A stretch of DNA of 64,000 nt from a virus (IMGVR_UViG_3300031133_000383:1-64000), one strand, 5' to 3'. Shown: positions 7,317 through 63,027, counted from the stretch's first letter. Translations and numbers: made by a program. The notes: generated from the letters alone by a model not told the origin.

Positions 7317-7904
7317 TTATAAGGATATCATTTCGTATACAGTTAATTCTTTTAAAAATATCTCTTTTTGTATATTATTGAAATTAATTTTATTTCTAAA
7401 AGTATCGTTTTCAGCAATGAATGTAAAGCACTCTTTGACACCAATTTTTGATACTTTCAATAACTGATAATCATTGAATTCATAAGATATTAGTCTATTA
7501 TAGAAATATGAAAAACTGCGGTGATATGGCAAAGTTATTAGACAACCTACCTTGTTATTGTTATTGTAATTTTGATTATAGAGCAATTCTATGTCAATGA
7601 AATCCGATTTATAGTTAAATTTTAATATAATTTTTACTCTAATATTTCTAAATTTATTTTCAAGTTCAATAAGTTTTTCGCAATTTCTGATAATCACCAA
7701 TATATTATCGTCAGTAATAAAATTTTTCATTTCTTCGACATTATCTATTTTTAATGTATAAGAGTCTTTATCAAAAACTAAAAAGCTTCTTTCATTAACA
7801 TAAGTATAACAATATTTATTATTATACTTGTTTTTTGAATAAATTGCTTTTTTTGAAAACCCGAATTTTTTGGCAGTACTTTTAATTTCTTTTTTATTAA
7901 ACAT
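7317..7904 (-). CDS. Hypothetical protein with C-terminal tag A
   Basis: 195-aa ORF ending ELTVYEMISL. Confidence 0.7.
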   Translation of the reverse strand: MFNKKEIKSTAKKFGFSKKAIYSKNKYNNKYCYTYVNERSFLVFDKDSYTLKIDNVEEMKNFITDDNILVIIRNCEKLIELENKFRNIRVKIILKFNYKSDFIDIELLYNQNYNNNNKVGCLITLPYHRSFSYFYNRLISYEFNDYQLLKVSKIGVKECFTFIAENDTFRNKINFNNIQKEIFLKELTVYEMISL

Positions 7905-7913
7905 ATTGGTTCC

Positions 7914-8423
7914 TTAACACTTGGCCATTTCGATAACTTGAAAATAGGATTTAAGGTCTTTAAATCCATCTTTGTAAGAAATATTGTAAAAATCTTCAAA
8001 TATTGAAAACAAGTAATTAAACAAAACAGAATCTCTATTAATAGATCCATCATTGTTTATTTTGAATATAAATTTCTTGTCAATATTTTTAAAAGTCATA
8101 GCAACATTTTTTCGTATTTCATCAAAAGGATTTAAATCTTCCCTCATGATTTTGACACTACTTTTTGAAAAATCCATAATCATATATACATTATCGTGGG
8201 ATTTGTAAATTTTGATACCTATATGATTTAAGATATTGATCAGTGGTAGATATTTCATGTTATTTAGGTAATTTATCAGCAGATCAATGTTATTAAGTTC
8301 TAATAAAAGATTTTTTGCCATTTCTTCTGGCAGTATTTCTTTTTCGAAACTACGCTTTTTATTTCTGAATTCATAAATTATTCGGGTGTTTTCTGCTGTT
8401 TCTTGAAACATAATATTCCTCAT
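7914..8423 (-). CDS. Hypothetical protein with C-terminal tag A
   Basis: 169-aa ORF ending YFQVIEMAKC. Confidence 0.7.
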   Translation of the reverse strand: MRNIMFQETAENTRIIYEFRNKKRSFEKEILPEEMAKNLLLELNNIDLLINYLNNMKYLPLINILNHIGIKIYKSHDNVYMIMDFSKSSVKIMREDLNPFDEIRKNVAMTFKNIDKKFIFKINNDGSINRDSVLFNYLFSIFEDFYNISYKDGFKDLKSYFQVIEMAKC

Positions 8424-9073
8424 ATTTCTATCATGTTGTTGAGTGTAAAATCATTCTTTGTTAATTCATGTGGCTGCTTTTCTGTAAGGTTGCATACTTT
8501 TCTTATCAACGTATTGTTCATTATATCTTCTACTCTTATCTTACTATCATTGATATAACCAGAACCAATATCTATATCAAAATCTTTAAAAAATTCAACA
8601 AAGTAATCATCAGAAAAGTTTAAAACCATTGTATAATCATTTTCACTCATGTTTAACTCTCTTAATATGGCTTTTTTAATGCATTTAGAGTCAATTAATT
8701 TATAAAGATATTTTGAAATCATGTAAAAGTAAAGCATCATAGGTAGCATCAAATAAATTGGAAACATTTCCAGAATAGATCTAACAGGAGCATAATAGAA
8801 ACTACTGACTATAATACCTAGTGTAACAAATGGAATCGAGTATACACCCCATACAAAAACATTAAATTTTATCAAGGTTTGAGAATTTAACGTTCTATTC
8901 TTAAATAGCCAAACACCAAAAACCAGTGAAAAAGTAACTGAATAGCTTGCAATATTGAAATTAAATAAAGACAGATGAATAATCGGTAAGGCTACCACAA
9001 TAACAATAAAAATATCTAAAGACCGCTTGAAATCGATTGTTGATTTAGTCAATTTATTCATTCTAGTCTCCAT
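8420..9073 (-). CDS. Membrane protein (about 4 TM) with C-terminal tag A
   Basis: Hydrophobic N-terminal half; ends DFTLNNMIEI. Confidence 0.7.
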   Translation of the reverse strand: METRMNKLTKSTIDFKRSLDIFIVIVVALPIIHLSLFNFNIASYSVTFSLVFGVWLFKNRTLNSQTLIKFNVFVWGVYSIPFVTLGIIVSSFYYAPVRSILEMFPIYLMLPMMLYFYMISKYLYKLIDSKCIKKAILRELNMSENDYTMVLNFSDDYFVEFFKDFDIDIGSGYINDSKIRVEDIMNNTLIRKVCNLTEKQPHELTKNDFTLNNMIEI

Positions 9074-9125
9074 ATAATTTGGATGATTATATCATAAAAG
9101 TAATAAAATAACAACATTTTTATGT

Positions 9126-9153
9126 TTGACATTCAAATGACAAACTATATAAT
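9126..9153 (+). promoter_or_regulatory. sigma70 promoter
   Basis: TTGACA-16 nt-TATAAT upstream of 9177. Confidence 0.7.
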
Positions 9154-9176
9154 GACTGAATTATTTGGAGACCTGT

Positions 9177-9767
9177 ATGAAAAAAATAGCACTGTTTTTA
9201 GGATGTATTTTAACATTACCTGTATGGGCGGCATCTGATGATGCAACAGGAGCTTTTGGCTATAAATTACGCTATTTCTATGAAGAAGCTAAAGAAACAA
9301 AGGACCCCTTAAATAAGATTGTGATAAAGCCAGAAAGTGAATATAAATTTTTAATGTTTAATGATTATACTTTATCTGTAACTCCCAAGACATATAAAAT
9401 ATATGCTATCAATGCGATAGGAAAGGTTTTTACATCTTGCCAAGAAGACAGTTTAATTATTGAAAATTTTTTGAAAAAGAAGTATGAGTTCTCAAGTACA
9501 GATAGAAAAATTGATGAACATGTTACTGTTCAGAAAGATGATGGAAATTTAGAAAAGGATAAAAATATTGCAACCATTTATGATTTAAGTAAAACAAGAA
9601 TTTATCTAACATGTAATCGAGAAAAAGATATTATTGCTATTTCTTATGTGGACACTGAAATGGCGATTCAAGCGTCTCTTGAATCACAGGACATGTTTGA
9701 TAAAAATATGGCTGATAAGATTAAAGCACTGAAAGATCGCGAAGACTTCAATGTTAAAGGACTTTAA
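9177..9767 (+). CDS. Secreted hypothetical protein
   Basis: Signal peptide MKKIALFLGCILTLPVWA; GGAG SD. Confidence 0.7.
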   Translation: MKKIALFLGCILTLPVWAASDDATGAFGYKLRYFYEEAKETKDPLNKIVIKPESEYKFLMFNDYTLSVTPKTYKIYAINAIGKVFTSCQEDSLIIENFLKKKYEFSSTDRKIDEHVTVQKDDGNLEKDKNIATIYDLSKTRIYLTCNREKDIIAISYVDTEMAIQASLESQDMFDKNMADKIKALKDREDFNVKGL

Positions 9768-10220
9768 TTATTCTATTGATAAATAGTCTTCATAATTTTT
9801 ATAGCAGGTATTAACCTTGAATATTAAACTGGTTATATTATATTTGTATGTTGACAAAAACTCTAATAAACCATTATCTGCATAAAACATATTCATTATT
9901 TCAATAGAGTCATTTTTCATCATGATATGGCCTTGCCAGAAGTGATTGAGATCGAGGTCACCCGAACGATCACGACAATATTTCACAGTTAATGCATTGC
10001 TAGCCATAGAGTATTTTCTATATTTTTTAGGAATTTGATCACTTACTTCAAATTTTAATGATTCTATTTTATAGATTTTTTTATCAATTAAGTAATAAAT
10101 GATTTTTGTAAAAAAATCATCAAGTCTTTGCACAATATAGTCTTCTACATCACCCTGAGTTTCTATTTTCAAATTATATGTGTTTTTATTTTTTATTATA
10201 AATAATTTTACTAATCGCAT
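9768..10220 (-). CDS. Hypothetical protein
   Basis: 150-aa ORF overlapping the end of the upstream phosphatase gene. Confidence 0.6.
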   Translation of the reverse strand: MRLVKLFIIKNKNTYNLKIETQGDVEDYIVQRLDDFFTKIIYYLIDKKIYKIESLKFEVSDQIPKKYRKYSMASNALTVKYCRDRSGDLDLNHFWQGHIMMKNDSIEIMNMFYADNGLLEFLSTYKYNITSLIFKVNTCYKNYEDYLSIE

Positions 10221-13704: not shown

Positions 13705-14430
13705 CTATATTAATATCATTTTAACTATGTTTTTTAAATTTTGATAATCTTGTTCATCAATTTCTCTTGCTTTTTTGAAGTCATATCCTAATGTTTTTAA
13801 AAGATCTTTATTCGCATTCAGAAACATTCTTTTTAATGATGTCTTGAAAAAGTCAGAATTTACTTCTTCAATGGCCCATATCGAATTTCCATGTATAAAA
13901 GCTTTATCATGTAGACGAAATCGTATTCTTTCAAAATGACTCCCATATGACAACTCGAAAATACAATTAATTCTTTTTATGAATGAATGTTCATCTTTGA
14001 TAAATAATACAGGTTTTACAGATAAATTGCAATTATATTTACCCATTTTGACAGATCTTTCATATTTATCTTCTGTCACCTTAAAATCTATGAATGCATC
14101 ATTTGTTAAATCATTGACATCTGTAATAAATTTACTCAAAAACTGATAGGACATTTCTGAATTGCTAACCCTTTCTATGCCTGTTTTAATCAATGTATTT
14201 TCTATCTTTTCAATATTTCCTTGTGTATCAATAGTGCCTGCTTGAAAAGGATCATTGTTGTTTGTTAATACAAAATGAGTGAATGCATCAATTTTGCAGG
14301 TCATTCTACTGATATAGGTTTTATCAGAATCTAATAAAGAATTTTCTATTTTTCTTTCCTGAGTCGTACCCTTGAATTGTCTTATCATCATTTTTTCAAT
14401 TATAGATTTTTCAATTTGACAAGTGATCAT
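13705..14430 (-). CDS. Hypothetical protein with C-terminal tag A
   Basis: 241-aa ORF ending LKNIVKMILI. Confidence 0.7.
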   Translation of the reverse strand: MITCQIEKSIIEKMMIRQFKGTTQERKIENSLLDSDKTYISRMTCKIDAFTHFVLTNNNDPFQAGTIDTQGNIEKIENTLIKTGIERVSNSEMSYQFLSKFITDVNDLTNDAFIDFKVTEDKYERSVKMGKYNCNLSVKPVLFIKDEHSFIKRINCIFELSYGSHFERIRFRLHDKAFIHGNSIWAIEEVNSDFFKTSLKRMFLNANKDLLKTLGYDFKKAREIDEQDYQNLKNIVKMILI

Positions 14431-16314: not shown

Positions 16315-16965
16315 TTAAATTGCAAACATTTTAAAAACTGTAAACTCTTCAATACTTATCTCTTTAAACGATAAATTATTGGCAGATAAATATTTCAGAT
16401 ACGCACTCAATGTAGAAATTTTCGACTTTTCCTTCTTCTTTATTACAGTGCCATCGTAAAGGATATCTTCACAAATATAAACATTGGTATTTGAATCATA
16501 ATGATATTTAATAGTGTTATTATAATCCAGAGAAGAATACACACTTCTTAGATACGCATTGATTTGGTACTGTTCATCCAGTTCTGGATAATATTCGCCT
16601 TCATAATATTCTTCGGCATTTTCATACAGGCAATAGGTAATACACAATAAAGCCAAGCTGTATAATGAAACAATCACTATATTTAGAATCGCTTGCATAC
16701 CTTTAAATTCTAAATGATAAGCATTGATAGTATAATTACCAATAGCTAAAAAAACAATAAAGGGCAATATTACTTTTATATTTGAATTGAATATATATCT
16801 TTTTTTGAAAGTCATAATCCATGAATATAGTAATAAAGATAAGCAAACAACTGTATATATAGTTATAAAGATATCCTTATGTAGTGTAAAGATAAAGGCT
16901 AAACCTATCGAAAGGTAGGTTAGATCGTTTTTTATAATCATTTCTTTCAAAAAATTATAGTTCAC
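16315..16965 (-). CDS. Membrane protein with C-terminal tag A
   Basis: About 4 TM segments then a soluble tail ending EEFTVFKMFAI; same architecture as 8420..9073. Confidence 0.7.
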   Translation of the reverse strand: MNYNFLKEMIIKNDLTYLSIGLAFIFTLHKDIFITIYTVVCLSLLLYSWIMTFKKRYIFNSNIKVILPFIVFLAIGNYTINAYHLEFKGMQAILNIVIVSLYSLALLCITYCLYENAEEYYEGEYYPELDEQYQINAYLRSVYSSLDYNNTIKYHYDSNTNVYICEDILYDGTVIKKKEKSKISTLSAYLKYLSANNLSFKEISIEEFTVFKMFAI

Positions 16966-18365: not shown

Positions 18366-20576
18366 ATGGACATTATTACAAATAAAGCGTTGTTGACTCG
18401 CAAACAAGCAGTAGCTATTGAGGCAACTAATAGTTCACAGATTAATACATCTCTCGTATTGGCGATCATGACTGAAATTGCACAGTTGGGCTATACTTTT
18501 GATAAACCATTGATGGATAGATTAGCAGCCTTGGATTCAACAAAATTAAAAATATTTAGAAGCTTCTTGGTTGAACAGCTACAAGAGATGGTGGGATCTC
18601 ATGTACGCTATGTACCTTTATTCAAATCTTTTCCTGATGGTATTCCAGATACTACTGAACTTATGTTGAAGAAAATCATTGGATACTTTCAAAATATATT
18701 GAAAATACCAGTCGATAATTATGTAGTATTATCCTGCGGACATACTGTATGTACAGATATGTTTGATCTTGATAATTATTCAGCATGTCCTATTTGCGAG
18801 CAGCAAGTAGCAGAATTGATGGACCATGACGATTCACATAAAGCATCAGAACCTGTTAAGCAGTTTAAAATCATTAAATTGGTTGAGCATTCTGTTGTGT
18901 ATGATGTATTTTCAAATATTCTAGATTCTAAAACTTCTATTTCAGAGACTGACAAAGCATTGGTTGAAGCTATTGTTAAATTAGAAGGTAATGGTATTGA
19001 AAAATATCTACCAGAAAAGATAGATCAAAAAGAAACTATTGCATTTTTGGCAGATAAACTATTAAAAAATACAACAGTATCTTATCAACTGATTGCAAAA
19101 TACTTTAAAACAGCCACAGATGTATTACGTTTGGCCGTACAATTTTCGGAAGGTGATGTTACTCTTCAGCAAAATACTAAATTTAAATTATCGAATGCCA
19201 AAAGAAAGCTGATTATGGCTTTATTGAACAATGTCAATGAAGCTCAGGTTGATATGGTCAGATACCGTGAACAGTGGATTAAATTAGGTGAAGTTATTCA
19301 CATTGGCACCTATAAGAATAAGTATTCAAAAGCTTATAAGGCTTTTGATCTGTTACGCAATCACAAAAGGGCTATTGAAACTTTTAATGGTAAAGTAGAA
19401 GAGTTAGTGATGTTGGCTCGATACACAGAAGATAATGAGTCTATTATTATTGAATTGGTAACTTTATTGTCAAGCCGTGCAGGTGAGTTTGCTCGACGTT
19501 TTGACCAAGTATTGAGATTGTCTGTTAATCAGGATATTGTAATAGATGCTTTTGAAAAAGTAGTACCTTCTGTAAAGACTGCAATGTTGTTGGGTATCAG
19601 CAAACATTTATTGGCTCGTGATGTTGCTCGTGATTTTAGAGCTTATATTCCAAAAGGAAAAATGTCGAAAATTCAGTTTTTTGCGGGTGATGACAGAAAA
19701 CTATTAACTAAATATGCAATTGATAAAACAGTCAACATTATCGAAAGTGAACTGTTGAGCAGATTTTCAAATCAAGAATCACTAGGTAAAGTGTATATTG
19801 ATCCAGAACTGGCAAATGTATTAGTGCCCTTCTCACAAAGAAGTGCTTCTACTTCATTGGTGAATATTCCAAGAGGCTCTAGAATCAAGATAGATGATAA
19901 AACACCTTTCATTAGACTGTATACTTATTGGAAAGCTTCGGTTGACGTTGATCTTGGTGCAACCATGTTGGATAAGAATTTCAAAGAAGTAGGCACTATC
20001 AGTTATTATAACTTAAGTTCTTTCGGACGCTCTGTTCACTCAGGCGATATTCGCGATGGACATAAAGGAGCAACTGAATTCATCGATTTGGATTTGCAAG
20101 CTTTTCGTGCAAAGAAAATTAAATACGTTGTAGTCAACTTAATTTCTTTTACTGGTGAAAAATTCTCAACGATGGAATGTTTTGCTGGCTTTATGGAACG
20201 TGAAACACCAGATTCAAAACAATTTGATGCAACAACTGTTAGACAAAAATTTAATATTACATCTGAATCCAGCTACTGTATTCCTATGATTTTTGATATT
20301 GAAACCAATGAAGTTATCTGGTTGGATTTGGTAACCCGTGAAGATGGTTTTGGATACAATTATCATAACAATAAATCTAATGTTTTGGATGCTGTCAAAG
20401 CTGGTATTGATTTGGTCAATACTAAAACAACTTTGATGGAGCTTTTTAATTTACATGCCCATGCTCGTGGTGAATTAGTTCATTATAAGCGAGAAGAAGG
20501 TGTTGAATATGATACTGTCTTTGATATTGAAAAGCTAAAAGACTTGGATGAAATTATGTCGAAATACCTAGCATAG
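18366..20576 (+). CDS. RING-like Zn domain plus TerD-like domain protein (MXAN_6230/SCO0854-like)
   Basis: LSCGH...ACPIC; TATDVLR; GEFARR; C-terminal DVDLG..HSGDI..ATEFIDLD. Confidence 0.75.
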   Translation: MDIITNKALLTRKQAVAIEATNSSQINTSLVLAIMTEIAQLGYTFDKPLMDRLAALDSTKLKIFRSFLVEQLQEMVGSHVRYVPLFKSFPDGIPDTTELMLKKIIGYFQNILKIPVDNYVVLSCGHTVCTDMFDLDNYSACPICEQQVAELMDHDDSHKASEPVKQFKIIKLVEHSVVYDVFSNILDSKTSISETDKALVEAIVKLEGNGIEKYLPEKIDQKETIAFLADKLLKNTTVSYQLIAKYFKTATDVLRLAVQFSEGDVTLQQNTKFKLSNAKRKLIMALLNNVNEAQVDMVRYREQWIKLGEVIHIGTYKNKYSKAYKAFDLLRNHKRAIETFNGKVEELVMLARYTEDNESIIIELVTLLSSRAGEFARRFDQVLRLSVNQDIVIDAFEKVVPSVKTAMLLGISKHLLARDVARDFRAYIPKGKMSKIQFFAGDDRKLLTKYAIDKTVNIIESELLSRFSNQESLGKVYIDPELANVLVPFSQRSASTSLVNIPRGSRIKIDDKTPFIRLYTYWKASVDVDLGATMLDKNFKEVGTISYYNLSSFGRSVHSGDIRDGHKGATEFIDLDLQAFRAKKIKYVVVNLISFTGEKFSTMECFAGFMERETPDSKQFDATTVRQKFNITSESSYCIPMIFDIETNEVIWLDLVTREDGFGYNYHNNKSNVLDAVKAGIDLVNTKTTLMELFNLHAHARGELVHYKREEGVEYDTVFDIEKLKDLDEIMSKYLA

Positions 20577-20687: not shown

Positions 20688-22493
20688 ATGTCAGCATTAA
20701 TCAATAATTTAGATTTATTCGATCCGCTATTAAATAAAAAAATAATTTCCAATTATGAAAATATAAAAGGTTTTATGTTTGGCTCCTTTGAAGAACATAT
20801 AATGAAATTAATTTTTAATTCTAATCAACGAGGTTATGGTTCATATAATCAATCACTGAATGAATCATTGTTGGAATTCAATAAAATATTAAATACGCCT
20901 TCTGAGCAGTTTAAAGAAATTAAATTATTATCAATTGATAGAATGAAAGATCCTGTATTAACACAGGAAAATATAATTGATATACCTTCAATGATCATAG
21001 AAGAATTATTTAGTTATGCTGAATCTCTAGGTATTGATGTATCAAATCAAAGAAAAGAAAGTATTTCAATTTTTGAAAAATTACAAAAAGAACAAGATAA
21101 AGTTGATGTCTATTTTAATCAATTAGAAAAATTAGTTTTTTTAAGTAAAAAAATTGCAGTTTGTAAACATGCTAGTAAAGATTTGACTAAACTAGAAAAC
21201 CATTTGAAGATGGGTAGAGATTTCTTAAATGATAACGAAACAATTTTGTTAACCACTGATATGTCTAGCGAGAGCAGTTACTTGTCATCAGGGTCAGACA
21301 TAGCCAAGAATTTTGGTGAGCTATTTAAAATGAAGCAACAGCTTATTCAAAAAATAAAAACTGAATGTACAGATAACATGGGTTTAACAACTGCAGATAT
21401 TTATTTGCGTTATCAAAATAATATGACACCTTTACAAAAAGCAATTTTTGAAAAAAGTACAGTAGTTCATATAGAATTAACTAAATCACAAGATGTATCA
21501 GGAGCTATTTTATTTGAAGATGGTAGCACTTTATTTAAAGAAAAAGATGGTAATTACATTATTAAAGACACACATACTGATGTTAACAGAACTGTAAAGA
21601 ATCTTTCTGAATGTTGTTTGGATTTCATGCTTAGGAAAAAACCTCAATTGGCTAAAGTTTTCAAAACAAAGTTTGAAGAAGATAGTCCTAAAATAAAAAC
21701 AATGCTTAATGTTGTGGATAGATTTCTATCATCAGAAGATATTTTAAAATCTGCATTAAAAGAAAATTATGGTACATTTCTAAAAGAGATGTTTGTCTAT
21801 CGCTCTATTGAAGCACTCGATGACTATGTGGCTAAAGTTGTGGATGATCATAAATTCAATCAGTTTGCTTACAGTATTGCGAGTTCAAAATATAAGCATT
21901 TATATGATGATAAATCTTTGACATTGTTAAAAGAAATTTATGACAATAAAATAGATGCTGTACAACTACAAGATTATATAGGTAAAAAAATAGCTGCTTT
22001 TAAAAATTCTGACGATTTCAATAATATTCTTACTCAATTTGTATCTAAAATGAATGGTTTTGATATTGATACAATTACTGATAAAGTTGAACGTTTAGGA
22101 GCCACGATAGTTTCTGCTGACGATGGTGTTTTGATCGTTGAAACAAGCGATTACAAACAAATGCAAGAGTTAGGTTCTACTAGTTGGTGTATTGTAAGAG
22201 ATGAGGGGTTTTACGAAGATTATGCGGGGGGAGGCAATAGACAATATATTGTTTTTGATTTCAATGAACTTTCATCTAATAATAATTCTATGATAGGTAT
22301 TACATTAACCGAAGATGGAAAACACAGAAATTCACATATTAAAAACGATGACAGTGTTTATGCAGAAGATGTTGAAAAATTTCACCACATTATCATCAAG
22401 CAGCAAGTTAATACATTTAAAAACTTAAATGAAAATTTAAGAAAGGAAATTTTTCCAAATGATACAAGAATTAACAAACTTAAAATGGCTTAA
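20688..22493 (+). CDS. Large protein with C-terminal SWC (PcfJ-like) domain; paralogue of 53903..55735
   Basis: ELGSTSWCIVR..NRQYIVFDFN..SMIGIT..HIKNDD; tail RINKLKMA. Confidence 0.65.
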   Translation: MSALINNLDLFDPLLNKKIISNYENIKGFMFGSFEEHIMKLIFNSNQRGYGSYNQSLNESLLEFNKILNTPSEQFKEIKLLSIDRMKDPVLTQENIIDIPSMIIEELFSYAESLGIDVSNQRKESISIFEKLQKEQDKVDVYFNQLEKLVFLSKKIAVCKHASKDLTKLENHLKMGRDFLNDNETILLTTDMSSESSYLSSGSDIAKNFGELFKMKQQLIQKIKTECTDNMGLTTADIYLRYQNNMTPLQKAIFEKSTVVHIELTKSQDVSGAILFEDGSTLFKEKDGNYIIKDTHTDVNRTVKNLSECCLDFMLRKKPQLAKVFKTKFEEDSPKIKTMLNVVDRFLSSEDILKSALKENYGTFLKEMFVYRSIEALDDYVAKVVDDHKFNQFAYSIASSKYKHLYDDKSLTLLKEIYDNKIDAVQLQDYIGKKIAAFKNSDDFNNILTQFVSKMNGFDIDTITDKVERLGATIVSADDGVLIVETSDYKQMQELGSTSWCIVRDEGFYEDYAGGGNRQYIVFDFNELSSNNNSMIGITLTEDGKHRNSHIKNDDSVYAEDVEKFHHIIIKQQVNTFKNLNENLRKEIFPNDTRINKLKMA

Positions 22494-24188: not shown

Positions 24189-24304
24189 TAAAAACGATAC
24201 TGCTATGAATAAGAGCTTTAATGCTCTTTTTTTATATGGGACTTTCATTGAAAGATCATAAAATAATGTTAAATTATAAATATAAAACAATAGGAGATTG
24301 TTGT

Positions 24305-30847: not shown

Positions 30848-31219
30848 ATGATTAAATCAGATACATACTTCTCTAATAATTTAAAAATGACTGCTTCATT
30901 GGGTGGTGGATTCTCTTATTCTGATAGGCCGCTTATTAAAGAAATGACACTTCAAGATGTAAAGGTCCAAAATGTTCAGTTATCAGTTAACCTTATAAAA
31001 GATGAAGATGCTCTCAGCCATAATAATTCTTTATTGTCAGCTTCCTTTAACCTTGAAAAAGTAATTTCTAGCTATGTAGATAAGGCTATTGATGATCCTG
31101 AACCTGATCTTATTAATGTACTATATACACGTCAAAGTTTAATAAAGCTGAAAACACACATAACGAAACAACTGGCTAAATTGGAAGCCTATGAAGATGC
31201 ATTGAGAGCTACTTTATGA
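30848..31219 (+). CDS. Hypothetical protein
   Basis: 123-aa ORF, AAGGTG SD, ATGA overlap with the next gene. Confidence 0.6.
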   Translation: MIKSDTYFSNNLKMTASLGGGFSYSDRPLIKEMTLQDVKVQNVQLSVNLIKDEDALSHNNSLLSASFNLEKVISSYVDKAIDDPEPDLINVLYTRQSLIKLKTHITKQLAKLEAYEDALRATL

Positions 31220-35139: not shown

Positions 35140-35281
35140 TTTTAATTCTCCAATAAAATACACAAAATAATAACACAGTACCATTAAATATCAATATCAT
35201 TTTCATTATATATTTTATAAAATATTTATTGCGAAAAACAATTATTTTGTGTATAATCATGTTTCATTATGGATATATAAG

Positions 35282-37752: not shown

Positions 37753-37753
37753 T

Positions 37754-39142: not shown

Positions 39143-39697
39143 ATGAAGATACAAATATCAAATATGATTAAGGACGATATTTATTTTAATACAGTGGTAG
39201 ACTGTATTGATTCTTTTTTAACTTATGAAAATAGATTTGGTTTATTTAATGAAAACTATAAAGATCATATATTTCAGATAATTGATGATTTTAAGAGATT
39301 CAATAAATCTTGTAAAATTTCCAAAGTAGCTGTTGAGATATTTATTCATGATTATACATTTCTATCGAAATATAAATGTAATCCATCTTTGTACATACCA
39401 ATAGACCATTACAAAAAAAGCCCATTTTTTCAGATCGATTTAACGGAAAATCTTCATCTTTCTATTGAAAATCATCGCGAAGATATAAAATTCATTACAA
39501 ACACTTATTTTAAAGATTTAGGCAAAAACATTATTACTTTTCATCCTAAAGACAATTACGGAAAGGATTTTAAAGATTGCTTATTTAACCATTTAATCAA
39601 ACCCAAAATAAATAGCCTTGCTGAATTTTCAGAGTGTACTCAGATTGAACACCTAACTGATGACGATATTTCGATTATCAATATGTTTAATATTTAA
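39143..39697 (+). CDS. Hypothetical protein with C-terminal tag A
   Basis: Ends DDDISIINMFNI. Confidence 0.7.
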   Translation: MKIQISNMIKDDIYFNTVVDCIDSFLTYENRFGLFNENYKDHIFQIIDDFKRFNKSCKISKVAVEIFIHDYTFLSKYKCNPSLYIPIDHYKKSPFFQIDLTENLHLSIENHREDIKFITNTYFKDLGKNIITFHPKDNYGKDFKDCLFNHLIKPKINSLAEFSECTQIEHLTDDDISIINMFNI

Positions 39698-48547: not shown

Positions 48548-49231
48548 ATGAACGATTATAATGACGATCTTATTGAAAAAATTTATGAGTTGACAATGTG
48601 TAATTCTCTTGTCACATTTCATCAAGATTTCAGTTATGATAAGCAAAATAATTTTAAAAATGCACAAGAGTTTACTTTTGATAAAAGTCTTCTTCAGTTT
48701 TCTTATAAAGATATGATTGATTGCTATGCTTTAAAGGACACTGTGCATAAAATGGATCAAGGCGAGAATGATTTGAGTTTTGATCAATTTGAAACAAGTT
48801 GGCAGCCAGAAGGCGATTTGAAAACTCGTTTTGATCTTGCTTATGTTGAAATCAATAAACTTCGAACTGGTCTTCACAATGTCATTACTGCACTAGGAGA
48901 AAAACCATCTGAGTTTATTTCCATTCGCCATTCCGTGTATTTTGATATGAATAATAAGCTATATCAAAATGAGATCAAAGTAGATTTATGTTATCGTAAT
49001 AAGTGTATCAACAGCAGTTTTATGATTTACGTCAGTGATTTTAATAATTATTTACGTATAACAATAAACTGTGGTCAGCATTGCAAGTCTATCAATGTTC
49101 AGAAAATAAATCCATTTTCCTTATCTTTTATGATATTTGATGAAAAAGAAGATTTATTTAATCTAGAAGATATTTATGATATTGATCAAGTTGTGGATCT
49201 TTTCAAAGTAAATCACATGTCAATCTATTAG
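48548..49231 (+). CDS. Hypothetical protein with C-terminal tag A
   Basis: Ends LFKVNHMSIY. Confidence 0.7.
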   Translation: MNDYNDDLIEKIYELTMCNSLVTFHQDFSYDKQNNFKNAQEFTFDKSLLQFSYKDMIDCYALKDTVHKMDQGENDLSFDQFETSWQPEGDLKTRFDLAYVEINKLRTGLHNVITALGEKPSEFISIRHSVYFDMNNKLYQNEIKVDLCYRNKCINSSFMIYVSDFNNYLRITINCGQHCKSINVQKINPFSLSFMIFDEKEDLFNLEDIYDIDQVVDLFKVNHMSIY

Positions 49232-49239
49232 GTGACTCT

Positions 49240-49884
49240 ATGAAAATTAATGAAATATTAATAAATAACCCTCATATTAAATTTAAACATCTCGATGAAA
49301 CCAATATGGAGGATGGGGTGATGTTCTTTCAAGAGCATGCTATCTGTAGTAGGGCAAACGATGATAGCTATGTTTTGATCCTGAGTAATGGTTTTAATTC
49401 AGAGACATCTCCACACGATTATAACGATTTTATTAATCAGTATATACCTAACTGTCAATTTATTGAAGAAAGGATCTCTAATAGCCTCAGATACTTCTAC
49501 AATAACATTATTGTAGCCACTGGTGAATTATTCAAAGTCCATTCTTTAAAATTTTCCAATATGTGCAAAGCGAGTATCAGGTTATTTTTTGATATACACA
49601 CACAGGAATTAAAAGAAATCAAAATATTTATGTTTCTGCATATTGAGCACAATGAAAAACATATCTATTTAAATATTTCAACAAACATAGATAAAGATTA
49701 CAATGTTTCATTTTCTGTCATGAAAAATGGAATATCCTATAATAATATGGAAAGGGTCAACCAACAATTCTTGAATATTATTTGTATGGAAAAATTTGAA
49801 AATGTGATCAATGATCTTTATTTTGATTATAGTTTTGAAGATGTTTTAAGATTGAGGCAATTATTGATTATCAATAAATATTGA
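49240..49884 (+). CDS. Hypothetical protein with C-terminal tag A (Ile variant)
   Basis: Ends LRQLLIINKY. Confidence 0.65.
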   Translation: MKINEILINNPHIKFKHLDETNMEDGVMFFQEHAICSRANDDSYVLILSNGFNSETSPHDYNDFINQYIPNCQFIEERISNSLRYFYNNIIVATGELFKVHSLKFSNMCKASIRLFFDIHTQELKEIKIFMFLHIEHNEKHIYLNISTNIDKDYNVSFSVMKNGISYNNMERVNQQFLNIICMEKFENVINDLYFDYSFEDVLRLRQLLIINKY

Positions 49885-49899: not shown

Positions 49900-50592
49900 A
49901 TGAACCTATTAATGGAACATATGATCGAACCATTCATAGGGGGAGTTCATAAAATGAACTTGAGTGCCATAGAAAAAAAGTACACAAATGTAATTAAGCA
50001 TTCCATTTTTCTGAAAATGAGTGCAAAGCCAAGCTTTATCTTGTCCGATAGTTTTAGGTTTCATCTATGTCCATTTCAGGATAAAATAACATTGATATTT
50101 GTGGTATCAGTCAATGAGGGATCATTTTCTAGGATACTCCAAAAACATGGTTATTTTCTAAAAAAAGAACTAAACGATTTAGTAGACAATCATTTAAATA
50201 AATGTCATCAGGTGATCCACTTATTAAAATCTGTCGTGAAAAAGATATTTGTTTTTCAAATAGAGTTGTTGTTGACTTTCAATACCAAGAACGAATTAGA
50301 ATCTTGTACTTTAAATATTATTATCGATATGGATGATATTGTTCAAATGTATGAAATTAAAGTCAACATTGATGATTTGAATCAATGCCAGTATTTTTAT
50401 CGTTCTATTGATTCAAATAAAAACTTCTGCCAGAATACAATAAATCCAACTGATCTTGGGAATCATTTTATTATTGAGTTCATAAGACAAAAACTCAGGG
50501 TGCTTAAATTAGATAACGATATAGATCTTGAATCCATTTCAATCAAACAGATTAATGAATATTTGAATTTGATTTCAATGCACAGTGTGTAA
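49900..50592 (+). CDS. Hypothetical protein with C-terminal tag A
   Basis: Ends YLNLISMHSV. Confidence 0.7.
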   Translation: MNLLMEHMIEPFIGGVHKMNLSAIEKKYTNVIKHSIFLKMSAKPSFILSDSFRFHLCPFQDKITLIFVVSVNEGSFSRILQKHGYFLKKELNDLVDNHLNKCHQVIHLLKSVVKKIFVFQIELLLTFNTKNELESCTLNIIIDMDDIVQMYEIKVNIDDLNQCQYFYRSIDSNKNFCQNTINPTDLGNHFIIEFIRQKLRVLKLDNDIDLESISIKQINEYLNLISMHSV

Positions 50593-52470: not shown

Positions 52471-53133
52471 ATGAATAGTAGTAGAAAATCAAATATCATT
52501 GAAAGTCTTGAAAAAAATATCAGTGCTTCTGGTAAAATTTTGAAATTGACAGAAGCAGCAGACTATAAGCCTTTAGAGCGAGATGATGAGTTCAGGTTTT
52601 TTATTGATGATAATTATTATACTGTTTATTCAAATGATGATATACAACCATCTCACATCTATGATTTATTATTTATTGATGAAGATAGCAGCCTTAGTAT
52701 TTTTGAAACTTTTTCAACATTGAGCAAAGCAGCATTTTTTAAGTGTTTAAATACCTTTTATCAGGATCTTGCATTTCTATATTTTTTTGCTTTTGGGCAG
52801 TCAGCAGACGTAAAGAAACCAGAATCATTGAATGATATTCTTGAAAGTATTTATTATGATGGTGATAACTATTTTTTTCGTCTAACAGTGGGTAACATAG
52901 AAACAGATGCCGTTTTTCTTATCTATTTTGATTTTTTTATTAATACTGAAACACATGATGTTTATTGGGAAAATCGATACAGATCACATATCAATGGTAA
53001 TTTGGTTTCTTTTGATACTTATGATGATTTAAAACAGAGTTTTATTAAACGCTATATATTGAGTCCCCTGAATAAAAGTCAACCCGAACTGGCGTGGAAT
53101 GATTACAAAATTTTGCAGATAATAAATCATTAA
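52471..53133 (+). CDS. Hypothetical protein with C-terminal tag A (Ile variant); tandem paralogue
   Basis: Ends PLNKSQPELAWNDYKILQIINH. Confidence 0.7.
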   Translation: MNSSRKSNIIESLEKNISASGKILKLTEAADYKPLERDDEFRFFIDDNYYTVYSNDDIQPSHIYDLLFIDEDSSLSIFETFSTLSKAAFFKCLNTFYQDLAFLYFFAFGQSADVKKPESLNDILESIYYDGDNYFFRLTVGNIETDAVFLIYFDFFINTETHDVYWENRYRSHINGNLVSFDTYDDLKQSFIKRYILSPLNKSQPELAWNDYKILQIINH

Positions 53134-53141: not shown

Positions 53142-53825
53142 ATGCATTCCACAGCACTTATAAAATCTTTACGTTCAATCATTAAATATCCTTATCAGAT
53201 AGATGGAATGCGATCACTCAATGATTCATCCGCCATGGTTCAAATATCCAATCTTGATAGGCCAGTAGATAAGTCTATGATAATGTATGTGTCTAAAATT
53301 TATACTCAAAAAAATAAATCAAAATTCTATCTTGAATTTGATGATCCTTTGCTGTTACTTAAATTTAACGATATCTTTGAAAATGAAATTGATTTTTTAA
53401 AAATATCACAAGAGATGTATTACAAGTTTAATTTTATCTATACTTATATACTGGGCAAGTCCGTCAATTATAATGGGTTTCCACACAGTCTCAAAGATAT
53501 GATTGAATATTATGACGCTACACATAGTCAATCAATGGGTAGTTATATATTTAAAACAGTGGTAACCGAAGATAATGATCATGAACCTTTAAAATATATG
53601 TTTATTTTAAGTTATGATATTTGTGAAAACATTTTTAAAATTGATTTTGATTTTTCAATGAATATTTTAACGCCACAAATTAAAACTTACTTTATTGAAT
53701 CTGCTCAAATAGAAAAAGTTATTGATATCCTTGTTTCTCAATATGCTTGTAAACCTTTAGATAAATCTCAACATGATTTATGTTTGTCCGATCATGCTAT
53801 TCTAAAAATACTTAATTATAATTAA
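53142..53825 (+). CDS. Hypothetical protein, paralogue of 52471..53133
   Basis: Ends PLDKSQHDLCLSDHAILKILNYN. Confidence 0.7.
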   Translation: MHSTALIKSLRSIIKYPYQIDGMRSLNDSSAMVQISNLDRPVDKSMIMYVSKIYTQKNKSKFYLEFDDPLLLLKFNDIFENEIDFLKISQEMYYKFNFIYTYILGKSVNYNGFPHSLKDMIEYYDATHSQSMGSYIFKTVVTEDNDHEPLKYMFILSYDICENIFKIDFDFSMNILTPQIKTYFIESAQIEKVIDILVSQYACKPLDKSQHDLCLSDHAILKILNYN

Positions 53826-53902: not shown

Positions 53903-55735
53903 ATGAATTTTATTGAGCAAGCAAAATTGTTTGAACGAGCCGAAAATCTTAAACACAACTATCCTGAGAATTATAGTTTAACTTCAATGTTGAAGCTACC
54001 TATTAAAGAACCTTCCTATGTTATTAATGATATTCTTTATGAATTTAAGAAAATGGCGGATAAAAATATTGTTTCTCTTTTAAATATCATCCCAAAAATA
54101 GACAAAAATGAATTCAACGAAGTAACTGATCTTTACAATACTTCTGATTATCATAATCATACCAAAGCGACTACTTCTAACGTTTTAAACTATATAGAAA
54201 ATATTTACAACCAATTTAAAAATATAGCCAATGAATATGGTATTGTTTTCCCAAAAAGTATTGAATTAGAAAAAAATAATATACTACAAGAAGTTGAAGA
54301 TTTTACAAATAAATTTGAACAGTTTTCAGATTTTTTTGAAAAATATAAAGTGATAGAAAAATTTTATGTACAAAACAAAATGAGTCCAGAAGCTGATTTT
54401 TACAGGGAAGAACTGCAAAACACTATAGAAGAATATAGTCATATAGTCAATATTAATATGGCTAAATTTTTTATAAATAATACAGTAAGTCATGGTCAAA
54501 ATTCAAAGGATATTGTATTGTTTCAATTATTTGATAGGCTTTCTATTTTAATTTCAACGATGCAAGATGAAATGAAATCACAAAATCTACAATCGCTGGC
54601 TACAATGGCCAGTCAGTTTATTATTGCTCAATCTATCGATAGCAGTGATGTAAAAAGTTTTCTAACAACAAAAAATTTTAGTGATGATATAGACTGTCGT
54701 ATACAATTGACCAGTTCTCAAAAAATAAGTGAAATGATTAACTTTAAAGATGGATCAACTATTGTCAAACAACGTAATAACCCTTATGAAGAAGTATCAG
54801 TAGATAAAGTTCGAAATGTAACTTATGACTTATTTGACTCTATTATTGATTATAAATTTAGAAAAAAACCAAGAATTGGAACATTGTTCAAAGAGAAGTA
54901 TAAAGAAGAAAGGGGGCTATTATTTGAATATGTTGATGTAGCTATGAATACTTATTTAGACAATGAAGCTATTTTAAAAAATGTTAAATTTGATTTATCT
55001 ATTTTTAAGTCTAAGGATTTTGAAGAAATAGACGATGCAATGAATGCCAGTATCAATACGTATAAAATAGATCGTTATGCCAATACAATATTGAGTACAA
55101 AATATAAACATTTGTTGACAGCAAACGCATTGGAAAGTTTCAAGGAACTTTATGAGGCCAAAATTTCTACAACTGATTTACAGAATTTAATCGGAAAAAA
55201 ACTTGCAGCGATTCAAAGTCCAGAAGAATTTGAGCAGTATCTTGACAAAGTTGTCAAGCAATTTAATGGTTTCAATACAGAAACTCTTTTAACCAAGTTG
55301 TCTTCTTTCAACATTGAACCATTATTATCTGACAATGATGTTTATGTGTTTGAAATCAAAAATTTTGAAGAATCAAAAAATTTGGGTAGTGCCAGTTGGT
55401 GTATTGCTCGTTCTGAACATTATTTTGAAAATTATACAGATTATGGCAATCGTCAGTTTTTCATCTATGATTTCAATAAAAAAGAAACCAGTAATGAGTC
55501 AATGATTGGCATCACAATAAAACAAAATGGTGATTTTCATACTCAGCATTTGAAAAATGATGATTTTATTCGAGCAAATGACTTTTTGAAAGATATTCGG
55601 AAGAGATTGATTTTAAAAGAACCTGAAAAGTATGAATTAAATAACCAATTAAAGCAAGAGCTAGGCATTGAGAACAATAATGATTTCAATGATGAAAAAA
55701 TTGAAAATAAGAAAAAGTTAAAGGTGGTTATTTAA
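53903..55735 (+). CDS. Large protein with C-terminal SWC (PcfJ-like) domain; paralogue of 20688..22493
   Basis: NLGSASWCIAR..NRQFFIYDFN..SMIGIT..HLKNDD; tail KKKLKVVI. Confidence 0.65.
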   Translation: MNFIEQAKLFERAENLKHNYPENYSLTSMLKLPIKEPSYVINDILYEFKKMADKNIVSLLNIIPKIDKNEFNEVTDLYNTSDYHNHTKATTSNVLNYIENIYNQFKNIANEYGIVFPKSIELEKNNILQEVEDFTNKFEQFSDFFEKYKVIEKFYVQNKMSPEADFYREELQNTIEEYSHIVNINMAKFFINNTVSHGQNSKDIVLFQLFDRLSILISTMQDEMKSQNLQSLATMASQFIIAQSIDSSDVKSFLTTKNFSDDIDCRIQLTSSQKISEMINFKDGSTIVKQRNNPYEEVSVDKVRNVTYDLFDSIIDYKFRKKPRIGTLFKEKYKEERGLLFEYVDVAMNTYLDNEAILKNVKFDLSIFKSKDFEEIDDAMNASINTYKIDRYANTILSTKYKHLLTANALESFKELYEAKISTTDLQNLIGKKLAAIQSPEEFEQYLDKVVKQFNGFNTETLLTKLSSFNIEPLLSDNDVYVFEIKNFEESKNLGSASWCIARSEHYFENYTDYGNRQFFIYDFNKKETSNESMIGITIKQNGDFHTQHLKNDDFIRANDFLKDIRKRLILKEPEKYELNNQLKQELGIENNNDFNDEKIENKKKLKVVI

Positions 55736-58003: not shown

Positions 58004-58058
58004 TAGACTTGTTCTCAATAACAATGTATTATTGTTGTCCAGATATAAAGGATTAAAT

Positions 58059-58873
58059 ATGAAAGATTTTATAAGAATAATAGACATCGGTCAGCTAGAA
58101 CTAATTAATTTTAAAAACTCAATTTCACGTCACATAAATATAAAAAATTTTGATGTGGTGTTTGAAATTATTCCTTTTGATATGACAAGAGCCATGGTAT
58201 ATATTCGAGATCTTGAAAATAACACAATGAATAGAGTTGGACAAATTATTTCTTATTTTTCAAACTGTTCATTGCCTGATGATGTCGTTTTTTATTTTTA
58301 TCCTGATTATGTTTTTTTTGAATATTATTCTGGTGATATTAAAGCCATACTGGATATTAGCACATCATTTCATGAGGCTTTTGTACATTATTTTGAAAAA
58401 AGTCATTCAACCTCTATTACTAAAAGAATGCAGTTAAAAGATTTTGAATTCAACATAGCAAATAAACCCAATATTATTTTAGTTGAAAACAGTCATTTTT
58501 CTAATTTGTCGCTTAAATATTTTAACCAATTCATTTTCGATTTCAAAAGAAATGGCGAATTTATAGAAAATATTAAAATGAATTTCAATAATAGTTCTGT
58601 AGATTTATTTAGTAAATCAATGGCTATTGATGGACAACTAGACTTTACATTCACTAAAAAAGAACACTATTGTTTGATTGATAGTTCAGGTAACAATAAA
58701 TTAAAGTTGAATTTGATAATCCTCAAATAGCTACCAGCATTATTGATGATCTATATTATACTGTTTATTATGGATTGATGTTCAAAATGTGCAACATAGA
58801 ATTTATACCAAAACAAGAATTTCTAAAACATAAAGAACACTACAATACTATTTTAGACATCTTTAAACAATAG
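58059..58873 (+). pseudogene. Frameshifted hypothetical protein of tag-A type
   Basis: Main frame stops at 58730. The -1 frame opens at 58700 and reads IKVEFDNPQ...YNTILDIFKQ to TAG at 58873; one A is missing at 58698-58700. Confidence 0.6.
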
Positions 58874-59825: not shown

Positions 59826-59826
59826 T

Positions 59827-60323: not shown

Positions 60324-60926
60324 ATGAATAAAGAAGATTATGAATATTTAATGTCTGAACGTTATTCCATATTGCTTCACGCTGATATAGAGCGTTTTGG
60401 AATGGTTTCATTTATAACTACTCATTTCCACATTCACTACATATATGAAAGCTTGACATTTATCATTACAGATGATGGCACCAATAAAATTATTAAAAAA
60501 TTTAACAAAAATAATCTTGACTATAAATCCAGTCTTTATGGTTTGCCTGCTCAAATCACCTATAATAACGCTGGATTACCCATGTTAATACTGTACAGGC
60601 ATACTGATACTAAAGGAATTCCCAATAAAACAGTTAAAAATTATGCCGTTAACAATGTGTTACTGGATACCAAATATTATTGGTATGATGAAAATGAAGT
60701 TTTATTAAATGAACGATTAACCACTTTCTTTAATCATTTTTTTATGGAAAAAATGTTTGATATTACCATAGATTATGATAATAGCCGTATCATGACTATC
60801 ATCATTCAGGCCATTTTGGAGGGTAAATCAGCAGAGATTGTTGAAGCTTTTAAAGTACTTAATATTAAAAGCCTCGATCATCTTGACCAAGCAGATTCTG
60901 TATTGGTTGAAATGCTTCAGTTATAA
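60324..60926 (+). CDS. Hypothetical protein with C-terminal tag A
   Basis: AGGTG SD; ends DSVLVEMLQL. Confidence 0.7.
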   Translation: MNKEDYEYLMSERYSILLHADIERFGMVSFITTHFHIHYIYESLTFIITDDGTNKIIKKFNKNNLDYKSSLYGLPAQITYNNAGLPMLILYRHTDTKGIPNKTVKNYAVNNVLLDTKYYWYDENEVLLNERLTTFFNHFFMEKMFDITIDYDNSRIMTIIIQAILEGKSAEIVEAFKVLNIKSLDHLDQADSVLVEMLQL

Positions 60927-60930
60927 AACA

Positions 60931-61688: not shown

Positions 61689-61762
61689 TAACATGTCTTT
61701 TCAATAATATTCAGTTATCATAACAGTGTCTTCTTAATACTCTATATAACTGGTTATAATAG

Positions 61763-61800
61763 TTGACATCCTCCCCCACCTGAAGGGAGATGTCTTCTTT
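61763..61800 (+). other. GC-rich hairpin resembling an IS200/IS605-family end, or a terminator
   Basis: TTGACATCCTCCCCCACCTGAAGGGAGATGTC; stems GACAT/ATGTC and CTCCC/GGGAG. Confidence 0.35.
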
Positions 61801-61994
61801 CACCAAAAGCATTATAAAATTTATAACCCAAATGACAATAACTATAAATACTTAATATAGTGTATTTATTTATAGTTAGCATAGGCCAAAATGATTTAAA
61901 TTTACTTTTTGATAATTGATTTTTGGATGTTTTTCTGCTATAGTACAAAAACGATAGGCAATCTATCTAGTTCACTTAATATTTGGAGGAATTT

Positions 61995-62315
61995 ATGAAT
62001 AAAGCTATCCATTCTACTACTTTTGATGTCACAGATGCACTACATGAACATATCAATACCAATATCTCGAAAATTGAACAGCACAACGATAAAACAACAC
62101 ACATTGATGTTTTTCTGAAAAAAGACAATCTTAAATTTATTGCAGAATTTAAACTTTTGGTTCCTCACACCAATGGGGTTCTGGTTAGCTCTTCGAGTGA
62201 GGATATGTATCATGCCATTACAGAAGCAACCAACAAAGTACTCATTAAGTTAAAGAAACTTAAAGAAAAATCAAAAAGTAAGCTACATCAAAAAATTTTG
62301 GTAGCAGAAGAGTAA
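61995..62315 (+). CDS. hpf: Ribosome hibernation promoting factor (HPF/RaiA)
   Basis: FDVTDAL, SEDMYHAI..KV..KLKK.KEK; GGAGG SD. Confidence 0.85.
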   Translation: MNKAIHSTTFDVTDALHEHINTNISKIEQHNDKTTHIDVFLKKDNLKFIAEFKLLVPHTNGVLVSSSSEDMYHAITEATNKVLIKLKKLKEKSKSKLHQKILVAEE

Positions 62316-62328
62316 AAGAAGAGTAAAC

Positions 62329-62351
62329 AAAGACCAGCAAAGCTGGTCTTT
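62329..62351 (+). terminator. Intrinsic terminator of hpf
   Basis: AAAGACCAGC-aaa-GCTGGTCTTT. Confidence 0.7.
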
Positions 62352-62370
62352 AACAATAGGATGGAAATGA

Positions 62371-63027
62371 TTGAAACAAAGTAAACGAGATAGAATCAAT
62401 TTCAGTTTGAATGAAATTCATAACGATGTAATGGAATTGTTCAAAATAGATCAAGATGTTCGAGAATGTTATATTGATATTCTGGATACTTTTGAATCTG
62501 ATTATTCCTATTATGAAGATTATGCTTATCCTTATTTCATGAAAGAAAATATAGCCATGGTTAATGATTTTAATCAGCAATATAAAATTACCAATCAAGT
62601 ATTGGATAAGAATTATATTGAAGACCATAATAATGCTTACTTTATGATAAATTTTGAGGATATACGTTCTGATTGTACACATCCTTTGGTTATTTTGTTA
62701 CTAGAACATTACTCGGGTCTAGCTGATTGTCATTCCTTTAATATATTCTTGGCTTATCATCAGCCTAAATGGAATTATAGGACAGAAATAATATTAAAAG
62801 TTTTTATTAATGATCTCGACTGTAAGTGGCCTAGTCGCAATGTCAATGAATTGAATTATATCAATAATCAAGTCTATCCATCTTTTGTAGAAACGGGTTT
62901 CCATAAAGTTATCTATAATGACTTAAAATTGAGACCTTATTTTTACAAGAGATTGGACATGAATGAAGACTATATTGTGACTCATTTTGATGACGTTAAA
63001 TGGTTATTGGAAGCTATTGATTATTGA
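62371..63027 (+). CDS. Hypothetical protein with tag-A-like end
   Basis: Ends VKWLLEAIDY. Confidence 0.6.
   Translation: MKQSKRDRINFSLNEIHNDVMELFKIDQDVRECYIDILDTFESDYSYYEDYAYPYFMKENIAMVNDFNQQYKITNQVLDKNYIEDHNNAYFMINFEDIRSDCTHPLVILLLEHYSGLADCHSFNIFLAYHQPKWNYRTEIILKVFINDLDCKWPSRNVNELNYINNQVYPSFVETGFHKVIYNDLKLRPYFYKRLDMNEDYIVTHFDDVKWLLEAIDY

Follow-up and report, generated by a model that had tools for sequence, protein, structure and literature searches.

Why do so many proteins of one giant phage-like genome, with no other feature in common, end on the same few residues? The question arises from a 64-kb window, the whole stretch of DNA analysed here, which forms the first part of IMGVR_UViG_3300031133_000383, a linear virus record of 437,043 bp in IMG/VR. 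An earlier note on this window had singled out 12 open reading frames (ORFs) closing with [VLI]-x-x-M-x-x-x-stop, together with a handful of variants, and had read the motif as a modular address label on a large variable repertoire. We find that the tail is an undescribed C-terminal helix borne by about one protein in five in a lineage of giant phage-like elements, and that it is the single constrained module of a very large, fast-diverging, lineage-specific repertoire. Our favoured reading, to which we give a probability of about 0.5, is that one external partner, the reader, serves all carriers and binds the helix and the chain end together.

We began from the ends of the proteins, numbering the last residue -1. 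All 12 ORFs named in the earlier note exist, and each has Met at -4 and Val, Leu or Ile at -7. The window contains 65 ORFs that are 120 aa or longer, and Met occupies -4 in 12 of them, against a Met background of 2.6% (binomial p 1e-7), and requiring V/L/I at -7 as well brings p to 7e-15; the claim of an excess far above chance, put in the note at about 2 of 75 ORFs expected, is thus borne out. Across the whole 437-kb record the signal becomes far stronger, with Met at -4 in 101 of 452 ORFs where about 12 are expected and with V/L/I at -7 in 83 of these 101 (p ~1e-61), while every other C-terminal position holds only 7-16 Met. A disappearance of the enrichment at the scale of the replicon, which the earlier note had named as grounds for dropping its proposal, therefore did not occur. 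Carriers of the tail are evenly distributed, at 1-8 per 20 kb throughout the record.

The tail is also locked to the C-terminus, as the earlier note had proposed. A 20-column hidden Markov model of the tail proved too weak to serve, and we used instead a leave-one-out position-specific scoring matrix (PSSM) of the last 15 residues, on which 60 of 452 C-termini reach at least 10 bits, compared with 7 of 109,736 internal windows. When the motif was scored only up to the Met, making the score independent of the residues that follow, 85 terminal instances were recovered, in which the Met is followed by three residues in 80 cases, by four in 4 and by two in 1 (94% exactly three). Relatives of this genome show the same pattern of positions, with a few ends one residue longer.

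The carriers in the window are set out below. The earlier note cited the low coordinate of each ORF, so the tails of plus-strand carriers lie at the other end. For one ORF the tail stood and the start did not: the protein placed at 37754 does end in VVDMMYN, and its ORF spans 37727-38443. The variants LVNIFEY, LLIINKY, ILQIINH and LLEAIDY, and ILDIFKQ in a frameshifted gene, were all located, and ILKILNYN is an addition to them.

7317-7904, minus strand: carrier of 195 aa ending ...LTVYEMISL, its tail encoded at 7317-7364; no Pfam or PHROG match
7914-8423, minus strand: carrier of 169 aa ending ...FQVIEMAKC
8420-9073, minus strand: carrier of 217 aa ending ...FTLNNMIEI, a multi-pass membrane protein whose C-terminal ~90 aa are soluble
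13705-14430, minus strand: carrier of 241 aa ending ...KNIVKMILI, an orphan whose sole database match is itself
16315-16965, minus strand: carrier of 216 aa ending ...FTVFKMFAI, a multi-pass membrane protein
31216-31836, plus strand: carrier of 206 aa ending ...FLVKKMLYL, with the tail at the 31836 end
35249-35998, plus strand: variant carrier of 249 aa with Ile at -4, ending ...RELVNIFEY (PSSM score 2.6)
36218-36997, plus strand: carrier of 259 aa ending ...KMINAMIDY; its paralogue is a tailed protein at genome 354623-355357
37727-38443, plus strand: carrier of 238 aa ending ...KDVVDMMYN
39143-39697, plus strand: carrier of 184 aa ending ...ISIINMFNI
48548-49231, plus strand: carrier of 227 aa ending ...FKVNHMSIY
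49240-49884, plus strand: variant carrier of 214 aa with Ile at -4, ending ...RQLLIINKY
49900-50592, plus strand: carrier of 230 aa ending ...LNLISMHSV
52471-53133, plus strand: variant carrier of 220 aa with Ile at -4, ending ...YKILQIINH
53142-53825, plus strand: variant carrier of 227 aa, one residue longer and with Ile replacing Met, ending ...HAILKILNYN
58850-58870, plus strand: ILDIFKQ-stop, probably the end of a frameshifted variant carrier; the gene at 58032-58873 appears to consist of an ORF at 58032-58730 followed by 57 codons in another frame, which this variant tail closes
60324-60926, plus strand: carrier of 200 aa ending ...SVLVEMLQL
62371-63027, plus strand: variant carrier of 218 aa with Ala at -4, ending ...KWLLEAIDY (PSSM score 3.8)

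What kind of element is this tail? It is a 15-residue amphipathic C-terminal alpha-helix. Information content in right-anchored sequences exceeds background from -1 to about -15, and the consensus reads [LIV]-hydrophobic-[EK]-M-hydrophobic-x-hydrophobic-stop. Hydrophobic residues of the helix fall at -13/-14, -9, -7, -6, -4, -3 and -1 (in strong carriers, 61% at -13, 88% at -9, 96% at -7, 77% at -6, 73% at -3 and 81% at -1, with Met at -4), and polar ones at -2, -5, -8 and -11. Position -5 is hydrophobic in 1% of cases and is mostly Glu or Lys (E in 36 and K in 24 of the 101 Met-4 carriers). Proline is absent from -1 to -11 in all 74 strong carriers, and residues suited to cap the N-terminus of a helix (S/T/D/N) are enriched at -15 to -19. 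AlphaFold likewise models the tail as helical in both carrier families for which we obtained predictions, over residues 289-303 of F1 and as the last part of a helix spanning 227-259 in F2.

Since ATG alone encodes Met, its constant place 9 nt ahead of the stop might in principle reflect a signal in DNA or RNA, such as a terminator, a re-initiation site or the promoter of the next gene. Near the stop codon, however, departures from other genes are limited to the ATG and to second codon positions; neither third positions nor the following 40 nt differ from background, and L, I and V alternate at -7. The signal therefore lies in the protein, and a nucleotide-level signal is for practical purposes refuted. 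Faulty ORF calling and a non-standard genetic code are likewise hard to credit. The record does encode an amber-suppressor tRNA, which could be taken to favour recoding, but stop codons are used normally and ORFs become no longer when TAG or TGA is read as sense, on which grounds we reject an alternative code. Taken as a group, these explanations are exceedingly improbable. The genome follows the standard genetic code, with ordinary stop-codon usage and with ORFs of at least 120 aa covering 80% of the DNA. The suppressor tRNA itself (anticodon CTA; labelled Pyl by ARAGORN) lies at genome 375947-376020, with nothing to suggest that TAG is recoded. We conclude that the tail is a genuine and strongly non-random feature that operates in the protein.

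How different, then, are the proteins that carry it? The 101 carriers fall into 88 clusters by BLAST, and a wider set of 112 candidate carriers falls into 94 clusters by jackhmmer after removal of the tails. Neither a shared N-terminal motif nor a second motif upstream of -12 emerged above controls. Most of the repertoire consists of soluble alpha+beta proteins of ~170-360 aa; the few multi-pass membrane proteins make up 6 of the 74 strong carriers and measure ~215 aa with only ~90 soluble residues; two of the six lie in the window (8420-9073 and 16315-16965), so that soluble and membrane carriers coexist as the earlier note had described. Carrier lengths are unimodal with a median of 246 aa, and the bodies are low in Ala, Gly and Trp and high in Phe, Tyr, Cys and His. 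Their genes are mildly clustered (19 adjacent pairs versus 12 expected; 43 singletons).

In the scan of the 112 candidates, none of the roughly 100 true carriers gave a significant Pfam match, compared with 35 Pfam families at 1e-4 in 112 length-matched non-carriers. PHROG matches among carriers were almost nil, the few in the lenient set including cases of chance Met at -4, compared with 74 PHROG families at 1e-6 in a second set of 115 non-carriers. Pfam and PHROG scans thus agree with the earlier note that no recognisable enzyme has the tag. A dCMP deaminase and two DEDDh exonucleases that have Met at -4 were rejected as carriers; their tail scores are negative or weak, and the Met is there by chance.

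Two carrier families could be modelled: F1 (~300 aa, 17 sequences) and F2 (~260 aa, 33 sequences). Their AlphaFold models reach a predicted local distance difference test score (pLDDT) of 84 and a predicted template-modelling score (pTM) of 0.84 for F1, and 89 and 0.83 for F2. When the two profiles were compared with hhalign, they aligned only over the last 15 residues. Ranked by conservation among all 15-residue windows, the tail stands 10th of 290 in F1 and 4th of 246 in F2, and the other conserved block is specific to each family and differs between them; the surroundings of the tail within the protein therefore vary while the tail stays constant. Together with the clustering above, this upholds the view that dissimilar proteins have the tail as their sole common element. 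The earlier note had also held that its proposal would fall if the bodies all proved to be one homologous fold with an ordinary structural last helix. Sequences give no shared similarity, and the predicted F1 and F2 structures have a similar coarse layout of an N-terminal helix, an antiparallel sheet and C-terminal helices, which leaves some probability to a very old common origin.

Structure searches gave no convincing match to a known fold. F1 gave no Foldseek match at E <= 0.001 in PDB or BFVD, and F2 gave only TM-scores of 0.45 or below in a fold search of the ESM Atlas. A wide VIA-align search yielded best Z-scores of 5.6 for F2 and of 6.0 or 5.9 for F1 (T4 MotA C-terminal domain; frataxin-like for residues 105-272), which lie below the level of a shared fold. 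For the protein at 13705, the ESM Atlas model has a pLDDT of 0.37 and is unusable.

The tail is inherited along with the body. Searched against 1.84 billion representatives, the F1 profile retrieved only 33 proteins, of which every full-length one is tailed and all but one have Met at -4, and we observed no gain or loss of the tail within families. It was never observed on a protein with a known domain, and with this pattern of inheritance it is not a label put on arbitrary proteins; the word modular, as used in the earlier note, overstates what is shown.

Where else does the tail occur? It is present in every relative fetched: the Logan contigs L021-L023, the distant relatives L029 and L030, and two JGI records of 1.85-1.86 Mb (L032 and L034). 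Carriers in the relatives are 32% identical to their best match in the 437-kb genome, compared with 54% for non-carrier neighbours (p 1e-4), and their last 15 residues are 57% identical compared with 39% overall. Four other huge phages that encode DnaK, sampled over 27-42 kb each, gave 0 tails in 139 ORFs, so the tail is neither a general trait of huge phages nor one linked to DnaK. We found no relatives among INPHARED phages by DNA or protein, in IMG/VR by single-protein query, or among GTDB genomes.

The genome itself, that of an uncultured element, is phage-like and evidently incomplete. CheckV rates the 437,043-bp record 98% complete. It is a fragment of something larger, as judged from a protein identical to the carrier at 13705-14430 on a contig of 521,788 bp and from relatives on far longer contigs: homologues of one carrier family occur on contigs of 1,281,823, 1,851,360 and 1,859,102 bp, with like gene content and the same tails (loci L031, L032 and L034, including the 521,788-bp contig). 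The largest phage genome that we found reported in the literature measures 841 kb (bioRxiv 10.1101/2025.01.14.633092). Literature searches on megabase phages, on the sample identifiers and on the tail motif found nothing, and no description of the tail appears in Pfam or PHROGs, in line with the earlier note's statement that no described system matches it.

The record has a G+C content of 31%, 26 tRNA genes including the one with anticodon CTA, no 16S rRNA and no ORF above 800 aa. Genes other than carriers are of phage-like kinds, among them HNH endonucleases, transposases, RNA ligases, polynucleotide kinase, a NAD salvage enzyme, NAD-dependent DNA ligases, Thg1, a tyrosyl-tRNA synthetase, a 'virion structural protein' PHROG and DnaK. 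Homologues of Band_7, LemA and M48 peptidase are also encoded. We found no terminase, replicative polymerase, clamp, clamp loader or T4-type replisome in the record, and family scans turned up no portal or capsid genes. The full-length DnaK (genome 182807-184708; L007:6213-8114) shares 73% identity with the DnaK of a Pseudomonas phage record and 64-66% with those of Salmonella and Acinetobacter, values that point to a gammaproteobacterial host or DnaK donor.

What could keep one helix constant on so many divergent bodies? In the docking reading, the helix and the free chain end would fit all carriers into one hydrophobic pocket or groove of a single partner, and the variable bodies would perform different jobs, probably at the host interface. 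The repertoire would have expanded by duplication and rapid divergence, leaving strong constraint only on the reader-binding helix. An external reader is favoured by the near-invariant Met, the fixed end, the same tail beside family-specific cores and the presence of the tail on membrane proteins, four facts that together make packing within each protein alone a hard explanation. Several observations weigh on the other side. No reader was identified in the 437 kb, where PDZ_6, S41 peptidase, gp45-type clamp and beta clamp were all missing, M41 protease appeared only as a 17-bit remnant and ClpP gave only a weak match. A vertically inherited structural helix would look alike in never occurring on a known domain and in showing no gain or loss; AlphaFold places the F2 tail confidently at the end of a long predicted helix (pLDDT 86-96); and about two thirds of the helix surface is hydrophobic, making it aggregation-prone if exposed. 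The 'address label' of the earlier note is accordingly plausible but unproven. Its widest form, a proteome-wide C-terminal address code by which hundreds of fast-evolving orphans, about one fifth of the genes, would be directed by helix and chain end to a single reader that would place them on DNA, in the particle or in a protease, is one that we advance tentatively, as a real possibility at somewhat less than even odds.

The chief alternative dispenses with an outside reader altogether. All carriers would descend from one ancient fold, its last helix packed on its own sheet and its bodies diverged beyond recognition. We regard this as unlikely, and it stays serious because the carriers are all orphans, with no significant Pfam match and almost no PHROG match, because the tail is inherited vertically, being present on every full-length F1 homologue, and because AlphaFold positions it confidently. 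The layout common to the F1 and F2 models, the unimodal lengths and the mild clustering of carrier genes would also fit a single origin. However, the comparison of F1 and F2 profiles finds the tail alone, and their conserved blocks differ. Membrane carriers with ~90 soluble residues cannot share an alpha+beta fold of 250-300 aa. Buried helices of diverged families normally swap L/I/V/M/F and have ragged ends, whereas here Met is near-invariant and 94% of instances stop three residues later.

If the tail does dock to a shared reader, the candidates are, in rough order, an FtsH-type AAA+ protease acting in timed turnover, the DNA sliding clamp, and a machinery that loads cargo into heads. The protease is a candidate by virtue of accepting soluble and membrane clients: FtsH takes both through non-polar C-terminal tails (LpxC, ssrA), and both kinds exist among the carriers. 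The tail would then be a degron or timer that delivers carriers to an FtsH-like enzyme, of phage or host, at a set stage of infection. The tailed distant relative L030 (SRR23945768) encodes at 2352-7371 an AAA protein of 729 aa followed by an AAA+/Peptidase_M41 (FtsH-like) protein of 946 aa, with a Band_7 gene nearby and, in the same 20 kb, several genes with tails, of which two place the Met at -5; the Band_7, LemA and M48 homologues of the 437-kb genome would suit the same scheme. Yet the record holds nothing of M41 beyond the remnant, degrons are usually loose and unstructured and not a helix with an invariant Met, and there is no clear reason to destroy a fifth of the proteome, all of which makes a degron improbable. 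The clamp enters as a candidate because the motif matches the tail of RB69 polymerase: the end of RB69 gp43 (KKASLFDMFDF) lies in the same register (L, F, D, M and F from -7 to -3, then F at -1), and its score of 5.2 bits against the tail PSSM places it among the top 0.1% of random windows; SLDFLY stands near the end of gp55. Tails of the gp43/gp55 type reportedly bind the gp45 clamp, as Shamoo and Steitz are said to have described in 1999, and an epitope of this T4/RB69 type would recruit hundreds of accessory proteins to the clamp on the element's DNA. Against this stand the lack of a clamp, clamp loader or replicative polymerase in the 437 kb (a fragment), carriers that are orphans and not replication or transcription proteins, six of them in the membrane, and a helix of 15 residues that is longer than the T4-type epitope; the RB69 match, moreover, was singled out for its likeness, and its significance is post hoc. 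We give the clamp only a slim chance. Loading into the head, with the tail as a C-terminal counterpart of the T4 capsid-targeting sequence (CTS) that would direct cargo into the procapsid for ejection into the host, seems just as much of a long shot. In the giant phage SPN3US, the packaged ejection proteins exceed 40 MDa (PMC7411985), and the sigma-70-type words TTGACA (upstream of 1 of 74 carriers versus 37 of 335 other genes) and TATAATA (2 of 74 versus 64 of 335) are rare before carriers, as would suit expression that is not early. This depletion may, however, merely reflect short intergenic gaps and positions within operons; multi-pass membrane carriers cannot be soluble head cargo; and the record yielded neither a terminase nor, in family scans, portal or capsid genes. 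A separate enrichment of TGAAGA(T) upstream of carriers was discarded as an artefact, being the coding sequence of the acidic stretch in the preceding tail.

Should the docking reading hold, an address code of this size would have no described precedent among the sorting systems of bacterial viruses, and very large phages would order their accessory proteome through a simple code at the protein ends, which T4 does for a small number of proteins by means of the CTS. Were a single partner to read the tail, one pull-down using a peptide of 20 residues might offer a way into the functions of several hundred orphans. These take up about a fifth of the coding capacity of a genome that, with relatives of up to 1.86 Mb, may rank among the largest phage-like ones seen. 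The same partner would also provide, as a practical side benefit, a portable tag for its machinery. If the helix is structural only, the carriers would constitute a very large, undescribed and rapidly diversifying superfamily with no match in PDB, BFVD or the ESM Atlas.

Other genes of the record deserve mention in their own right. A prokaryotic RING finger (Prok-RING_4, E 1.7e-9) is found on two large proteins of 736 and 778 aa (window 18366-20576 and genome 191517-193853), candidates for a hub-like or ligase-like role. Nine paralogous DEDDh exonucleases have a PolIII-epsilon-like C-terminal domain (PF21762), two of them in the window (834-1829 and 6308-7222) and seven elsewhere in the genome; such PF21762 exonucleases also occur in relatives, adjoining a class Ib tRNA synthetase gene. 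A family of ~600-aa proteins without a Pfam match has six members (window 20688-22493 and 53903-55735, and four more), one of which (238249-240114) adjoins an S49/ClpP-like peptidase (237188-238132). The window further encodes a 650-aa protein in which a major facilitator superfamily transporter is fused to a phospholipid acyltransferase domain (24221-26173), and a 632-aa protein with an N-terminal ART-PolyVal ADP-ribosyltransferase domain (E 1e-12; 3029-4927).

How does the tail compare with known systems that read protein ends? Its last residues have the pattern of a class II PDZ ligand (hydrophobic-x-hydrophobic-COOH), being hydrophobic at -1 in 81% and at -3 in 73% of strong carriers and fixed in their end, and models of PDZ_6 and of S41 tail-specific proteases had no match in the 437 kb. 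The clamp-binding tails of T4/RB69 gp43, gp55 and gp33 resemble it in lying at or next to the extreme C-terminus and in mixing hydrophobic with acidic residues, but they belong to a few proteins of known function per phage, whereas here the carriers are orphans, the helix is longer and the record has no clamp gene. The C-terminal degrons of AAA+ proteases (the ssrA tag, the LpxC tail for FtsH and the SulA tail for Lon) are non-polar, are read from the free end and act on soluble and membrane substrates; unlike the tail described here, known degrons are short, loosely defined and non-helical, and none is found on a fifth of a proteome.

Two further systems share the scale of the repertoire. The Dot/Icm (type IVB) signals of Legionella and Coxiella serve hundreds of orphan effectors in AT-rich genomes, have a hydrophobic residue near -3/-4 that follows an acidic stretch, and are confined to the C-terminus. 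The many orphans, the AT-rich genome, the gammaproteobacterial affinity, the acidic stretch and the C-terminal confinement are all matched here, but Dot/Icm signals are degenerate, lack structure and have neither an invariant residue nor a constant end point, and the gene content here is phage-like. The ankyrin-repeat PRANC/F-box-like proteins of poxviruses, along with comparable multigene adaptor families of other viruses, likewise form large, fast-diversifying viral families in which variable bodies are joined to a conserved hub-binding module at the extreme C-terminus. PRANC, however, is a domain of ~40-50 residues with a Pfam model that binds eukaryotic Skp1, whereas the bodies here are non-repeat and the host is bacterial, and none of the 112 candidate carriers matched PRANC or F-box models.

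The remaining comparison is with the CTS of T-even phages, an N-terminal peptide of ~10 residues that is removed by the prohead protease and is found on a handful of proteins. The tail differs from it in being a C-terminal helix of 15 residues, without a consistent cleavage site, on more than 100 carriers in 437 kb, membrane proteins among them. A Gibbs sampler detected no CTS-like N-terminal signal on carriers above control. A site resembling the CTS-type (L/I)-x-E, [LIV]-x-E, precedes the Met in about one third to one half of tails, where a cut would remove only 4 residues, and the sole candidate for a prohead protease in the record is the S49/ClpP-like peptidase at genome 237188-238132. What the two have in common is a short conserved terminal element as the only feature shared by diverse proteins: in T-even phages the CTS is the sole element common to the diverse, fast-evolving IPI, IPII, IPIII and Alt, and it is read by one machine (PMC3012670).

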